Below are positions 7,442 to 13,694 of a stretch of DNA of 19,484 nucleotides, one piece after another. This DNA is from Candidatus Fraserbacteria bacterium (GTDB taxonomy: Bacteria > Bipolaricaulota > Bipolaricaulia > RBG-16-55-9), in the NCBI GenBank assembly GCA_037442925.1, contig JBBIPG010000044.1, positions 1 through 19,484 of the forward strand, given 5' to 3'. Within the stretch, counting starts at the first letter, position 1; each line of letters opens with the position of its first letter. Below the pieces are notes generated by a model. It searched no databases. It saw only the letters and a program-made list of their open reading frames with translations, and was not told the DNA's origin. Position numbers and translations under genes: made by a program.

Positions 7442-7490
7442 TTGACCCCGTGAAAGACTTGTGTTAAGATTTTTACAACTGGTAGGAGGA
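7442..7490 (+). promoter_or_regulatory. sigma70 promoter and ribosome-binding site of the orphan two-gene cassette
   Basis: TTGACC (7442-7447), 17-nt spacer, TG-n-TAAGAT (7465-7470); AGGAGGA at 7484-7490, 8 nt before ATG 7499. Confidence 0.7.
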
Positions 7491-7498
7491 GAATAACC

Positions 7499-7975
7499 AT
7501 GAAGAGTCTGATACTATTTAAGTTTGGTGGTCTCGCCATCCTGCTTGTCCTAAGTGGATGCGCGTTGCCCCTAGTGGATCACCAAGACAATCCGACGGCG
7601 AAGGATTCAACTGTGAGTTCTTTCTCGCTGACTGGGGTTGACGACACACTTACATATCACCGGATGCGCGAGCTGAGAGCCAAGATGTACACTCGCATAG
7701 GGGGCTTATTCGGGGAAGACGCTAAAGAATTCTTCATTCGCTATGAGAACGGCTATATGGTGGACGCCGCTACAAATCAGATCCTTGGAACTGTAGACCC
7801 TGTCACAAAGGTCGGTCAGATGACACTCTGCACAGGCAAGGTGCATGTCTTCTGCAAAGTGCTTCGAGGTGTCGGTGTGGATGAACAGAACTTCGGAGCC
7901 TGGGAAATCACCCATTATATCTTGGATGGAATTTCCACTCCCGCCGAGCAGGTGCCAATTTGGAGTGATCGTTGA
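7499..7975 (+). CDS. Hypothetical lipoprotein
   Basis: Strong SD; signal peptide MKSLILFKFGGLAILLVLSG|C with lipobox LSGC (Cys21); no family recognised. Confidence 0.75.
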   Translation: MKSLILFKFGGLAILLVLSGCALPLVDHQDNPTAKDSTVSSFSLTGVDDTLTYHRMRELRAKMYTRIGGLFGEDAKEFFIRYENGYMVDAATNQILGTVDPVTKVGQMTLCTGKVHVFCKVLRGVGVDEQNFGAWEITHYILDGISTPAEQVPIWSDR

Positions 7976-8355
7976 TAAAGAAAGATATGCATGCTCAGAG
8001 AGCTACGTTGTTAGGTAGTGTTATTGTCTTCTTGTTGCTATTTGGCTCTTATTCGGCCACTGCACATACGGCTTGCATACAGGGAGGGATATATTATGCT
8101 AGCCTGCCGGATTCCTGGATGGAATATGTCGGCTATTACTGCAACTACTACGCGTGTTACGATGTTTACGATCATGACATGCTGTATTACGTATCCTGCC
8201 AGTACCCCTGGAGCCCTACATTGTACATCGATCACTTAGATGTATTCCATGGAGACGGCAGGTTGGCTAGTAGCATATCAGCAGCAAACCATCGTCACGA
8301 CGTGTACATAGGGCCTCCAAGTGGGGGCTGTAATCCTACCTGCCCCGAACCCTAG
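7972..8355 (+). CDS. Hypothetical secreted Tyr/Cys/His-rich small protein
   Basis: TTG start overlaps the upstream stop (TTGA), with GGAG at 7962-7965; ATG 7987 is an alternative. Hydrophobic signal peptide ending in A-T-A. Predicted 96-aa mature part has 14 Tyr, 6 Cys and 6 His. Confidence 0.7.
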   Translation: MIKKDMHAQRATLLGSVIVFLLLFGSYSATAHTACIQGGIYYASLPDSWMEYVGYYCNYYACYDVYDHDMLYYVSCQYPWSPTLYIDHLDVFHGDGRLASSISAANHRHDVYIGPPSGGCNPTCPEP

Positions 8356-9452: not shown

Positions 9453-11101
9453 AAGCCTTCGCTCGAGATGTGAGTATATTCTTCTCTTCCCCTTGGGTGG
9501 TCGGCGCGCTCTTGGCCCTCGCGCTGGTGGGTTTGATCCTCTCCCTCTCTCAGCCTCACATCTTACCCCCCACGATCTTCTTCGCCGGTGTCTGGTATAC
9601 CCGTCTCTTGTGGCTGCTTCTCGTGTTCAGCTTGGGACTGCTCTTGGCGAAGGGACTTCGCACGACAGCCCGGCTCATCGCGCAGCGAGGTCTGGGATGG
9701 ACAGTCCATCACTTTCTCACCTCGATCCGTCTGGCGATTGTGCTCATTGCCCTGCTCGTGCTGATCGGACTGATCAGCACCATCGTGCCACAGCTCGCAT
9801 TCAATCGTGAGATCGATCTTCTGACCCGCTATGGACCTGAGAATTATTCCTGGCTGCGTTCTTGGGGCTTCTTCACGATCTTCAGCACAGGGTATGTGTA
9901 TGGCATCATTGCGCTCTTTGTACTGAATCTCTTTGCGTGTACTCTCAAGCGCCTAAGGGCTTCACTGCAATACGTCCGCTTGCCGATGCGCGCCAAGCAA
10001 CCAGAAGCGTTCGCTCACATGCCCTGCTATCGTGAGTTTTCGTTTGAGCCTGCTCGTTCCACATCCCTATGGGAACATGTGCGCCACACTCTACAGTCAC
10101 GGGGATTCCGAGTTCGCGAGGAAGGAGGAGAGCTGCTGGCCGAGCGGTGGCGCTGGGAACGGTTTTCGATTGATGTCTTTCACGTGAGTTTATTGGTAGC
10201 CATTGGAGCACTTGTGATGACCAACACGCTGGGATACGATTATCTGCAAATCAACTATAAGGGCGATGTCTTCTCCGTGCGAGACAGGAATTTTCAAGTG
10301 CGCGTGGATGACTTCTGGAGCGAGAACTATCCTGGCACCGATCGGGTGATGGATTGGAAGACAAAGCTCACGGTGATCGAGAACGGGCGCGAAGTGAAGT
10401 CTGGCATCACGGAAGTGAATCATCCTTTCACATATCGTGGAGTGAGCATCTATCAGGCGGCCATGGGCGAGGATTGGCTAAGCGGGGCTCGCGTCACTGT
10501 TCGCGTGCAGAAAGACGATGGAACAGACTTGGGTGAGTACTCGGCCCAAGTGAACGAATACTTTGTGCTTCCTGAGGAAGGAATTGCCGTCAAAGTGGGT
10601 GCATTCTTGCCTGACTTTGCGCTGGCCAACGGCGTGGCCTACAGCAAGACTCAACGATTGCTCAACCCGGCGGCTTATCTTGAGGTCTACGATGAGAAGA
10701 CCGGTGCACAGCTCTTCCGCACCTGGACCTTCTCACAGCTGCCGGAGGTGCAGCTCGTGGTGGAGAATCCCTATCGATTTTATCTTATGGGCATGGTAGC
10801 ACCACAGTTTACGGGTTTAGAATTCAGTTGGGATCCGGGATTGCCTGTGGCGTATGTTGCCTTCGCCCTGATGATCATGATGCTCATTGTGAATCTCTAC
10901 TTCAAGCACCAGATGATTTGGCTTCACATGGACGAAGAGGCAGGAATTTTGCGTTTGGGCGGCCGTAGCCGCAAGGGGGACTTCGGCCCCACATTTGAGT
11001 CGCTGATTGAGAAGATTCACGAGAGGGGTCTAATACAACAAATGTCACAGCCCCGACCAGAGCTTGTCTCTGTAGGGGAAAGGGAGGAACACCACACATG
11101 A
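9449..11101 (+). CDS. resB: Cytochrome c biogenesis protein ResB/CcsB (System II)
   Basis: FLTSIRLAIVLI...ISTIVPQ, LNLFACT, VFHVSLL (TM His), EVNHPFTYRGVSIYQ and TGLEFSWDPG; GTGA overlap with resA. Confidence 0.88.
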   Translation: MKAFARDVSIFFSSPWVVGALLALALVGLILSLSQPHILPPTIFFAGVWYTRLLWLLLVFSLGLLLAKGLRTTARLIAQRGLGWTVHHFLTSIRLAIVLIALLVLIGLISTIVPQLAFNREIDLLTRYGPENYSWLRSWGFFTIFSTGYVYGIIALFVLNLFACTLKRLRASLQYVRLPMRAKQPEAFAHMPCYREFSFEPARSTSLWEHVRHTLQSRGFRVREEGGELLAERWRWERFSIDVFHVSLLVAIGALVMTNTLGYDYLQINYKGDVFSVRDRNFQVRVDDFWSENYPGTDRVMDWKTKLTVIENGREVKSGITEVNHPFTYRGVSIYQAAMGEDWLSGARVTVRVQKDDGTDLGEYSAQVNEYFVLPEEGIAVKVGAFLPDFALANGVAYSKTQRLLNPAAYLEVYDEKTGAQLFRTWTFSQLPEVQLVVENPYRFYLMGMVAPQFTGLEFSWDPGLPVAYVAFALMIMMLIVNLYFKHQMIWLHMDEEAGILRLGGRSRKGDFGPTFESLIEKIHERGLIQQMSQPRPELVSVGEREEHHT

Positions 11102-12000
11102 TCGACAGTACGTTCTTTTTCTTCTTGAGCACACCGGGATATTTTCTGGCTCTGCTCTTCTACCTCTTTGGTGCCGTCTTTACTCGACCCTCTAAGAAGC
11201 ATACGGCCGAGCAGACCTTGGGCATCACCGCCACGCTGGTTCGTCAGCGCACGGAGATCGGCTGGGAACAGATGGCGCTTTGGATCACTCGTCTCAGTGT
11301 GCTTCTGGCCACGGTCGGCGTTATCTGGCGCACCATCGAGCTGGGGACCGCGTCAAACTGGGCGCTTTCCGTCTTCTTGCCTGTGACATCTACCTACGAA
11401 ACGCTCACATTCATGGCGTGGCTCATTCCGCTAGTCTATTCAATTCTAGAACGACACTACCGTTTTCCGGGTGTGGGGGCGATCATCACGGGCATAGCGT
11501 TTGCGATGCTGGTAGTCGCTGCCTCGCCTGCCATTGCGCCTCGTCAGGTGGCACCGGTAGTGCCTTCGCTTCAGAGTTACTGGCTGGTCATCCACGTTCT
11601 CTTCCTGATCGTGGGCATCTCACTCTTCACAGTGGGATTTGGAGCCGCTCTGCTCCTGCTCTGGAGACGGTATCGAGGCACGGAGCCAGCCATGCTGCAG
11701 AAGCTCGAAGAGCTAAGCTACAAAGCGAACGCTTTGGGTTTCCCCTTCTACGGCATTGGAGGAGTGATCTTTGGCGGCATCTGGGCCAAACAAGCGTGGG
11801 GAGCCTACTGGGAGTGGGATCCTAAGGAGACGGCCATGCTCATCGCCTGGTTGGCGTATGCGGTCTATCTGCATGCGCGAATGCGCTGGGGTTGGCGGGA
11901 TGTGAGGGTCGTGTGGCTCTCGGTGGCTGCGTATCTCGTCGTGCTCTACACCTGGATTGGGATCAACTACTTCGTGGCCAGTCTGCACAGTTTCACATAA
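11098..12000 (+). CDS. ccsA: Cytochrome c biogenesis protein CcsA/ResC (System II heme channel and synthase)
   Basis: PSLQSYWLVIHV, WWD motif GGIWAKQAWGAYWEWDPKE, YLHAR and terminal LHSF; ATGA overlap with resB. Confidence 0.93.
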   Translation: MIDSTFFFFLSTPGYFLALLFYLFGAVFTRPSKKHTAEQTLGITATLVRQRTEIGWEQMALWITRLSVLLATVGVIWRTIELGTASNWALSVFLPVTSTYETLTFMAWLIPLVYSILERHYRFPGVGAIITGIAFAMLVVAASPAIAPRQVAPVVPSLQSYWLVIHVLFLIVGISLFTVGFGAALLLLWRRYRGTEPAMLQKLEELSYKANALGFPFYGIGGVIFGGIWAKQAWGAYWEWDPKETAMLIAWLAYAVYLHARMRWGWRDVRVVWLSVAAYLVVLYTWIGINYFVASLHSFT

Positions 12001-12021
12001 AATCAGTACTCGCGAAAGGAT

Positions 12022-12050
12022 AAGGGCGGTCGCTTGTGGCGGCCGCCCTT
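12022..12050. terminator. GC-rich hairpin between convergent ccsA and cca; probable terminator, possibly bidirectional
   Basis: AAGGGCGGTCGC-TTGTG-GCGGCCGCCCTT, a 12-bp stem. U-tracts are weak (minus-strand tail TTATCCTTT). Confidence 0.6.
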
Positions 12051-12057
12051 GGAGGTG

Positions 12058-12200
12058 AGAGGGTTAGTAGCCACTTGGCTCAGTGAACCTACCGACTATT
12101 TGGGAAAACCCTAGCAGCCGTGAGGGCCTCTTTCCCTCAACGTAGGCTCACCTTGCTTGAGCCAAGCCCAAGGAGGTGATACCGAGGCCACTATAGCTCT
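12058..12200 (-). ncRNA. Candidate structured small RNA or 3'-UTR element with an exposed anti-Shine-Dalgarno bulge
   Basis: Nested stems 12065-72/12186-93, 12073-82/12158-67 and 12083-92/12142-51, plus hairpins 12093-12120 and 12121-12139. Four mismatches are A.C on + and therefore G.U on -. The unpaired bulge reads GUAUCACCUCCUU on -. Confidence 0.55.
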
Positions 12201-12227
12201 TAAGGATCTTTGAATCTGTGATTTGAC

Positions 12228-13694
12228 TTACCTTCGTTTGTCCCGTCGAGCGGAGATGAGACGCTGCGCTTCTGCCAGGGCCGCTCGGCGGCTGCGGATC
12301 TCTCCGGCATAGATCCTCTCATGAAGCTCTTCCAGTAGCTGCCCGATTTCAGGACCCTTCGGCACTCCCAGCTTGAGAAGATCATGTCCATTGATGAGCG
12401 CGCGTGCTTGCGAGAGCTGTTCCAGTTCTTGCAAGTGAACTAACAGTTCTTCTGTAGCCTCGATTACAGGCAGCCAGCCTTTGGATTTCATGGCGCTCGC
12501 TTGACAATCGGCGATCATGAGTTGAATGAGCTTGGCAAAGTAGGGGAAACGTGCGGGAAAGTCAGCGATATTCTGTGATGGATCTTCGCCTTGGCGTATG
12601 AATTTCACCTGCTTGCCTCGCCCCATCTCCGGGAAATGTCCGATTCGTTGATGCTCTTTCACTAAGAATTCGACGAGCTTCACTTCGTCGTTGCTCAGGC
12701 GCAGTCTACGGCAGATCTCGCGGGTCATCTCTGCGCCGATGGCATCATGGCCTGCTGCATTCTCCCCACGGTTGATCTCCAATGCTCGGCCTTTCCCGAT
12801 GTCATGCAGAAGCAGGGCCAACTTTACCAGCGGGTCCCCAATGAAGCGATCTGCGACTCGTAGAGCCATGAGCGTATGGGTGTATACGTCCCCTTCTGGA
12901 TGGTATTTCTCCGGCTGGGGGACGCCCTTGCAAGCCACCAGCTCCGGCACAATGAGATCGAGCAACGCGTGTTCGTCGAGAAGTTGAATCCCTCGGGCTG
13001 AGCGGCGTGTGCGCAGTAACGCCAACAGCTCGTCGCGAACGCGCTCGGCAGAGATGAGCAACAAACCTTCATGGTGAACGCGAATGGCGGCGCTCGTCTC
13101 AGGAGCAAGTTCCGCATCCAAAGAACAGGCAAAGCGTATGGCTCTGAGCAGTCGCAGGTAATCTTCCCGGAAGCGCTCATCGGGGTTTCCGATGGTCTGG
13201 ATGATCTTGCGCGTAAGATCGCGTACGCCTCCGACGAGGTCTATCACTTGCCCATCGGCGCGTGCCGCAAGCCCGTTGACTGTAAAATCTCGACGTTGCA
13301 CATCGTGCTTGAGATCTCTTACTAGCTCTACGCGGGCGGGCCAGCGACCGTCGTATTCGCCTTCGGTCCGAAACGTTGCGACTTCGTACTCTTCTCCTTG
13401 TGGGCTGATGATCTTGAGGACGCCGAAGGCCGCTCCCACTTCGATGAGGCGGTGCCCTTGGAAAATCCTTCGGATCTCGTCAGGCATCGCGGAGGTGGCA
13501 ATGTCAATCTCTTCTGGTTCGAAGTGCTCGTGTTTCTCCATCTGGGTGCGCACAGCGTCGCGAACGGTGCCCCCGATCAAGACGGCCTCATGACCTGCTT
13601 GAGCGAGTCTTTCGAGAATCTCTCGCGCGAAGGGGTGCTGCTCGAAGATCTTTTCTGTGTCAATCCAAAGCTTGCTTGAGGCGTTGCGTCTCAT
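12228..13694 (-). CDS. cca: Class II tRNA nucleotidyltransferase (CCA-adding enzyme) with HD domain
   Basis: IGGTVRD, EIDIAT, EVATFRTE, RRDFTVN, RFREDYLRLLRAIRF, SAERVRDE; HD domain HPEGDVYTH...LLHDIGK. Start at ATG 13694, coupled (ATGA) to the upstream stop. Confidence 0.9.
   Translation of the reverse strand: MRRNASSKLWIDTEKIFEQHPFAREILERLAQAGHEAVLIGGTVRDAVRTQMEKHEHFEPEEIDIATSAMPDEIRRIFQGHRLIEVGAAFGVLKIISPQGEEYEVATFRTEGEYDGRWPARVELVRDLKHDVQRRDFTVNGLAARADGQVIDLVGGVRDLTRKIIQTIGNPDERFREDYLRLLRAIRFACSLDAELAPETSAAIRVHHEGLLLISAERVRDELLALLRTRRSARGIQLLDEHALLDLIVPELVACKGVPQPEKYHPEGDVYTHTLMALRVADRFIGDPLVKLALLLHDIGKGRALEINRGENAAGHDAIGAEMTREICRRLRLSNDEVKLVEFLVKEHQRIGHFPEMGRGKQVKFIRQGEDPSQNIADFPARFPYFAKLIQLMIADCQASAMKSKGWLPVIEATEELLVHLQELEQLSQARALINGHDLLKLGVPKGPEIGQLLEELHERIYAGEIRSRRAALAEAQRLISARRDKRR

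Follow-up and report, generated by a model that had tools for sequence, protein, structure and literature searches.

A conserved small RNA gene with two anti-Shine-Dalgarno arms and a CRP-type promoter palindrome in an order of uncultured Bipolaricaulota

The DNA analyzed here, the window, is a stretch of 19,484 nucleotides from the genome of a Candidatus Fraserbacteria bacterium of the Bipolaricaulota. Its minus strand holds a predicted small RNA (sRNA) of about 165 to 170 nt at positions 12015 to 12183, the ends of which were inferred from promoter geometry and a terminator; most homologues are about 90 to 100 nt long. Upstream on the same strand is a gene resembling that for CCA tRNA nucleotidyltransferase (cca; 12228 to 13691), with a best profile match below the curated cut-off, and a cytochrome c biogenesis gene of the CcsB/CcsA type (ccsA; 11098 to 12000, plus strand) converges on the RNA. 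The genes on both sides vary among the families of the order (f1 to f5). The upstream neighbor is cca only in family f1, ccsA adjoins many but not all homologues, and the upstream genes outside f1 are ones that we take, from their translations, to be epimerase-like, nusB-like, or wecB-like. Open reading frames over the sRNA are only 20 to 33 amino acids long, and the length between the invariant ends of its core stem ranges from 9 to 108 nt across homologues, so that any overlying reading frame would be broken. A plus-strand toxin frame behind a perfect Shine-Dalgarno (SD) sequence was considered and dropped, as no start codon is conserved.

The initial annotation had described a minus-strand RNA of stacked stems capped by hairpins, and we found its stems, its four G.U pairs, and both of its UCACCUCC motifs at the coordinates it gave. 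The four in-stem mismatches read as A.C on the plus strand but as G.U on the minus strand, for which the predicted fold has an energy of -83.6 kcal/mol, a z score of -4.40, and 0 of 200 shuffled sequences as good; the plus-strand fold is weaker (z score of -2.10, with 5 of 200 shuffles as good). For the predicted transcript alone (12183 to 12018), the z score is -3.71.

All copies have the same order of parts. A 5' arm, AUCACCUCCUU, leads into a stem, GCUUGG...CCAAG, and a linker joins this stem to a second arm, CCCUCUCACC(U/C)C, which is followed by a 3' hairpin, usually with pyrimidines after it. The first arm (12180 to 12170) is identical over 11 nt to the 3' end of the 16S rRNA of the same genome, which bears out the 16S-like character first ascribed to it. 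It is predicted to be unpaired, with an opening cost of 1.8 kcal/mol, and its invariance in the later scans is partly by construction because they required this motif. The second arm, CCCUCUCACCUCC (12051 to 12063, minus strand), is also predicted to be unpaired, with an opening cost of 1.0 kcal/mol. The core stem (12073 to 12167), in which 12167 to 12158 pair with 12082 to 12073, encloses a variable insert (12083 to 12157) made of a second stem and two hairpins. The 3' end is a terminator-like hairpin (12049 to 12022) followed by a pyrimidine tail that reaches 12015 and is U-richer in most homologues. This hairpin is below -12 kcal/mol in 41 of 42 sequences; a simple terminator scan did not call it in our own genome.

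Both the sequence and the pairing of the core stem are invariant, with 95 to 97% of its cells paired and compensatory changes at three of the nine pairs; for the core stem and the terminator hairpin together, 94 to 95% of cells pair. Covariation was tested on a MAFFT alignment and on a model-fitted alignment of 37 distinct sequences, of which the latter leans toward the model, and the kin sequences are not independent. The score of the core stem and the 3' hairpin was reached by 0 of 500 shuffles, and slid controls were far lower. The insert behaves differently: its 9- to 108-nt spread means that it is dispensable, and thus most of the folded structure in the initial annotation is optional. 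The second stem keeps 10 of 10 pairs in three genomes, with changes on both sides in G005. Within the insert, 12102 to 12111 is a likely deletion remnant of a U-rich internal-loop module that is complete in a same-genus homologue and in sibling RNAs; the module model, R2, gave no match at this locus.

The outermost stem that had been drawn (12065 to 12072 with 12186 to 12193) is not conserved. It forms eight of eight pairs only in our own genome and at least seven of eight in 2 of 41 family sequences when any of 32 registers is allowed, and it draws on the -10 box and on bases immediately ahead of the predicted start. Because this stem falls on the promoter and pairs fully only here, the supposed 18-nt bulge (12168 to 12185) should instead be read as the RNA's free 5' end. 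These observations also bear on a divergent 6S RNA (RF00013), which had been offered as an alternative. The window copy is similar in length to 6S RNA and has a long irregular stem, and a search of all 35 genomes in the order gave no RF00013 match, which would favor such an identity. However, the 5' arm of the would-be closing stem is promoter DNA, neither a conserved closing stem nor a two-sided bubble is seen, and most homologues are half the size, with a core of about 90 to 100 nt, a free 5' arm, and their own terminator hairpin. Moreover, no RF00013 match appears at the window even at an E value of 10. We therefore consider a 6S identity extremely unlikely.

No clear promoter had been noticed for the RNA at first, and a simple promoter scan also missed it, but a -10 hexamer, a 17-bp spacer, and a palindrome are conserved among the homologues. 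When the sequences are anchored on the 5' arm, the -10 hexamer lies 8 to 11 nt upstream. In the window, on the minus strand, this hexamer is TATAGT (12190 to 12195), and a weak -35-like hexamer (12213 to 12218), 17 bp before it, overlaps a CRP/FNR-type palindrome, TGTRA-N6-TYACA (12217 to 12232). The palindrome matches at 9 of 10 positions, is centered at -41.5 from the predicted start, and overlaps the cca stop codon with its left half. At a fixed offset, at least 8 of 10 positions match in 27 of 30 distinct promoters, versus 0.08% of random genome positions; with the best of 25 registers allowed, the same holds for all 41 family sequences. The -10 box agrees with TATAAT at four or more of six positions in 38 of the 41, at 37 to 38 nt after the start of the palindrome.

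This promoter, together with upstream genes that differ between families, leaves the proposed processing of the RNA from the cca 3' untranslated region (UTR) without support. A product of that UTR, or a cis element such as a terminator region or a ccsA antisense RNA, would fit with the frequent adjacency of ccsA and with the absence of a terminator-like site between the cca stop codon and the RNA in our search, which makes read-through possible. We nevertheless judge these origins very unlikely, since all 41 sequences keep the promoter, cca is upstream in one family only, and the downstream gene varies. The element is very probably an independent RNA gene.

The TGTGA-N6-TCACA-like site on the -35 region, with its center near -41.5 of the inferred start, has the layout of a class II CRP/FNR promoter. 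Class II CRP promoters are described as having a TGTGA inverted repeat with 6-bp spacing that overlaps the -35 element (PMC12360894). Our own genome has 12 CRP-family domains over the cut-off; a Rex domain was not found in it. Perfect boxes number 16, of which 8 are outside long open reading frames (DNA that makes up 18% of the genome), and 5 of these 8 are no more than 5 kb from a CRP-family gene. Judged from the promoter sequences, control by a CRP-family protein is probable, and the site would act by activation, or possibly by repression, through one of these 12 paralogues.

Twelve CRP-family proteins are many for a genome of 2.07 Mb. Palindromes of the form TGTAA/TGTGA-N6 cluster beside CRP-family genes on contigs C31, C36, C46, C68, C13, C2, and C23 of our own genome (G000), and the genes behind them are presumably thiol- or redox-related (thioredoxin-like and CcdA-like). 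Such palindromes ahead of genes of this appearance suggest a redox-related regulon. In the window itself, a 9-of-10 match to the palindrome (7462 to 7477) stands shortly before a lipoprotein-like open reading frame of 158 amino acids (7499 to 7975). Neither this frame nor the next one (7972 to 8355), which is rich in Cys, Tyr, and His, has a Pfam or NCBIfam match.

The sRNA gene is present in 30 of 35 genomes of one order of Bipolaricaulota and is single copy in our own genome. R1, a covariance model derived from 19 short copies, matched our own genome and all eight genomes of f1, 14 of 16 in f5, 4 of 4 in f3, 1 of 1 in f2, and 0 of 3 in f4; beyond this count, a DNA search of relatives found the sRNA in two further f5 genomes. 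The ortholog was not found in G024 (93% complete), G029 (87% complete), or f4. R1 matches outside the order (4 of 114 genomes; E values of 0.017 to 0.049) were weak, lacked the seeds, and were rejected. A BLAST tally of 33 of 60 relatives was left unused as a measure of distribution because the query included ccsA sequence. Exact-pattern scanning of GTDB gave 91 matches, 28 of them with the full 3' motif by regular expression and one more (L103) full by eye; the remainder were discarded as chance. Among the 24 full GTDB copies listed by title, 21 are labeled Bipolaricaulota, Acetothermia, or Fraserbacteria and 3 "uncultured Thermotogae." Full copies made up 22 of 39 matches in JGI metagenomes and neither of two matches in viral sequences.

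The checks against known families leave the novelty of the RNA in place. Rfam 15 has no match in the window at the gathering score, and at E values of up to 10 only a chance 15-bit terminator match appears; at 12 sibling and homologue loci, Rfam found only a neighboring tRNA and a c-di-GMP riboswitch. A literature search on sRNAs of Bipolaricaulota, Acetothermia, and Fraserbacteria, which could miss families described only in supplements or subscription journals, returned no description of such an RNA. On comparative sequence evidence, then, the element is a conserved non-coding RNA gene of one uncultured Bipolaricaulota group, apparently restricted to that lineage and undescribed.

The first 10 nt of arm 2 complement the leaders of a CRP-family gene and of ftsA. 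In a ranking of arm 2 duplexes over 1943 genes, with gene starts from our own crude gene caller, the CRP-family gene came first (-26.4 kcal/mol; z score of -4.0) and ftsA second. With target accessibility included, they were 4th and 10th of 60 rescored genes. The CRP-family gene (G000:C13:1123-1797; called crp here) encodes cNMP and HTH_Crp_2 domains. All 25 crp orthologues examined in f1, f2, and f5 have the exact 10-nt complement of arm 2, GGTGAGAGGG, positioned at the ATG or 1 nt ahead of it; none of the 30 in the order f9 does. The commonest pre-start 10-mer is shared by 24 of 30 crp orthologues, versus 6 of 26, 2 of 15, 2 of 14, and 2 of 25 for four control genes from the same loci, and the leader of a paralogous regulator varies, unlike that of crp. 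The f3 family has changed on both sides of the duplex, to a C-run in the seed (CACCCCU) and a G-run in the leader (GGGGGTG). Over 23 related pairs, pairing of each seed with its own leader is marginally above that of permuted pairs (P of about 0.05).

No RNA was found in f9, yet the crp leader there remains GGTGAGGG-like, and G.U pairs would let about half of its 30 examples form duplexes of -20 to -23.5 kcal/mol; the site may thus predate the RNA or serve the ribosome. G024 and G029, in neither of which the RNA was found, also keep the crp leader site. The ftsA leaders of f1 to f4 carry the arm 2 site, often twice in f1, whereas most f5 leaders have a bulged or weaker site despite an unchanged seed. 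Two f4 genomes, in which the ortholog was not found, have sibling RNAs with a seed-2-like arm (L220 and L333). Cytochrome c (CxxCH) genes were not significantly enriched among the targets (P values of 0.21 and 0.06). Pairing with ribosome-binding sites is the likely mode of the sRNA, and crp is somewhat more likely than not to be one of its targets.

Two further candidates around these regulators were set aside. Neither the site of an FNR-like paralogue on contig C8, which ranks high in our own genome, nor a CRP box upstream of crp is conserved. The crp product is 72 to 91% identical across the order and 61 to 68% identical in f9; it has an invariant, nonclassical recognition helix, VSSKTAIRTL, and its gene adjoins an Lrp/AsnC gene. 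In most f1 genomes, an upstream reading frame of four to five codons (MR/KxW-stop) overlaps the ftsA start (L291 to L297, L300, and L302), and the start of the f1 ftsA gene itself repeats the seed-2 site.

For arm 1, no perfect mRNA target is conserved, and the recurrent match is the antisense strand of a sibling RNA. The identity of arm 1 with the 16S tail over 11 nt might mean that the RNA mimics that tail as a broad SD sponge, damping translation globally or titrating an anti-SD-binding protein instead of regulating a small set of mRNAs. Among called genes, about 73% reach an SD energy of -6 kcal/mol or better, and a 5' anti-SD-like motif precedes 27 of 35 inspected elements that bear the U-rich module, both of which would suit a sponge. 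Arm 2, however, extends with CCCUC, unlike 16S rRNA, and matches the unusually invariant crp leader. We regard a sponge as unlikely.

The reading that we prefer, and hold to be reasonably likely, is an RNA gene with its own promoter, activated by a CRP/FNR-family factor, with anti-SD arms that repress ribosome-binding sites and with crp as the best predicted target. The sRNA would be transcribed from about 12183, with class II-type activation by such a factor. Arm 2 would cover the SD and spacer of the crp mRNA, and probably of ftsA, and arm 1 would serve as a general anti-SD against mRNAs whose SD sequences are long; this pairing would proceed without a need for Hfq. The resulting circuit would be a CRP-to-sRNA-to-CRP cascade. 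Classical CRP carries an RE motif in its recognition helix; because the helix of the target regulator lacks this motif, we did not take the cascade as autoregulation. The regulator site, the RNA, and the target site are readable from genomes alone, pointing to this circuit and a possible link to ftsA, in deep-branching uncultured phyla for which riboregulation is little described. The initial proposal of an unannotated and likely trans-acting anti-SD sRNA on the minus strand has gained conservation, covariation, and a conserved predicted target site, still with no Rfam match; the CRP-type box, the likely targets, and the related RNAs were not part of that proposal.

The RNA has several features of the trans-acting anti-SD sRNA class: its own promoter and terminator, no conserved open reading frame, and a conserved seed predicted to be accessible. 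The enterobacterial sRNA CyaR needs Hfq. CyaR is reported as a CRP-dependent sRNA that targets the SD sequence of ompX (bioRxiv 10.1101/2024.10.08.617194). The window sRNA resembles it in CRP dependence and SD targeting, both predicted here, and differs in having no Rfam match, a genome in which Hfq was not found, and a pair of anti-SD arms that flank a stem carrying a variable insert. Among Firmicutes, RsaE/RoxS, FsrA, and CsfG are described as pairing with targets through C-rich regions, with RoxS under redox regulators (PMC8216469). C-rich pairing regions are shared by the window sRNA; in contrast to RsaE/RoxS, it has no Rfam match, a CRP-type box at its promoter with no Rex domain found, and seeds of 11 to 13 nt that include a copy of the 16S tail. 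The alphaproteobacterial cuckoo, or RSs0680 (CcsR), RNAs are presented as multicopy modular sRNAs with the anti-SD-like motif CCUCCUCCC in the loops of two to four adjacent hairpins (PMC4615179). The multicopy modular form and an anti-SD-like motif are likenesses; however, the motifs of the window sRNA are of another sequence and lie in unpaired arms that flank one stem, and CCUCCUCCC is absent from the aligned family, the seeds of which are outside loops. The betaproteobacterial toxic small RNAs (RF02278) carry an anti-SD-like motif. They are characterized as short, multicopy, terminator bearing, and intergenic (PMC4603805). These traits are shared by the window sRNA, which differs in phylum and structure and in its lack of an Rfam match. 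For bacterial Y RNA, neither a Ro60/TROVE protein in our own genome (94% complete) nor an Rfam match was found. The window sRNA is a member of none of the CyaR, RoxS/RsaE, and cuckoo groups. Anti-SD repression is a mechanism class already known, which limits the surprise; the family, the scaffold, and the predicted circuit are new.

The long inserts of some homologues contain a GGG-UUUUG-C strand opposite G-AUUUU(U)-CCC, with a U-rich internal loop between two helices. A model of this module recovered one to seven copies in every one of the 33 genomes scored in the order. It recovered none in the 55 genomes of f8 or the 43 of f9; f6, f7, f10, and f11 had one genome each with a match, in most cases a weak one. 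Our own genome has one weak and six strong copies, the latter all used for model building. Its siblings with the U-rich module are at C11:40085-40262(-), C14:32170-32355(-), C26:11755-11935(+), C12:7515-7620(-), C13:4420-4620(+), C30:11485-11630(-), and C9:40745-40890(+), none with an Rfam match. Several have CCUCCUU in an apical loop or 5' arm, and some have a T-loop-like hairpin. In the same set of 35 inspected elements, a GCUUGG-type stem was seen in 22, a C-rich apical loop in 13, and a T-loop-like hairpin in 8.

Several related copies per genome with inverted-repeat ends could also be MITE-like or REP-like repeats with no RNA function. However, copies sit at orthologous places: in 24 tabulated genomes from all five families, one lies 2.6 to 3.0 kb downstream of crp, in a table that listed only genomes with such a copy. 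This placement points to inherited genes rather than mobile repeats, and with compensatory changes and promoters of their own as well, a repeat origin is highly unlikely.

Hfq, Lsm, CsrA, and Ro60/TROVE proteins were not found in our own genome, at 94% completeness. A multicopy module family in such a setting would suggest either that pairing proceeds at high temperature without a chaperone or that a new RNA-binding protein takes part. One bolder reading, which we consider rather unlikely, is an order-wide set of modular guide-like RNAs served by such a protein. They would share a protein-docking scaffold (the GCUUGG/CCAAG stem and an internal loop of stacked U.U pairs) and would carry interchangeable seeds, placed in the apical loop or at either end. 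It is improbable that the sRNA and its siblings are mainly protein-binding scaffolds (the stem plus the U-rich loop), with the anti-SD arms as guides or secondary features. The lack of matches to Hfq, Lsm, CsrA, and TROVE, the spread of the module, and a core stem fixed in sequence and not just in pairing would favor that role, but the complete module is found by regular expression in only 5 of 41 family members and is truncated at the window locus, and no partner protein was identified.

Returning to the sRNAs themselves, we found two further families. One (L243 to L259; e.g., G011:C42:15683-15903) has a 5' CCUCAUCCCU arm and a seed, AACCCCCUUUCC, before its terminator. It occurs in f5, f2, and f4; three copies share the palindrome and -10 geometry, and most others come after a small membrane-protein-like gene. 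The other is found in f5 (L226 to L228, L358 to L364, L368, and L370) and has a CACACCUCCU 5' arm. On the same strand, a conserved GGTGAGAGGG site precedes that arm by about 110 nt and is a possible RNA-RNA pairing site for arm 2. A small RNA adjacent to trpS (G000:C4:~44260-44380, plus strand) has only the 3' half of the U-rich module along with a T-loop-like hairpin and is thus probably another sibling. A look-alike on C34 was dropped as a sibling because it is within a c-di-GMP riboswitch region. At that place (G000:C34:182-327, plus strand; L328:133-278), a c-di-GMP-I-GGC riboswitch with a long insertion is followed by anti-SD-containing hairpins.
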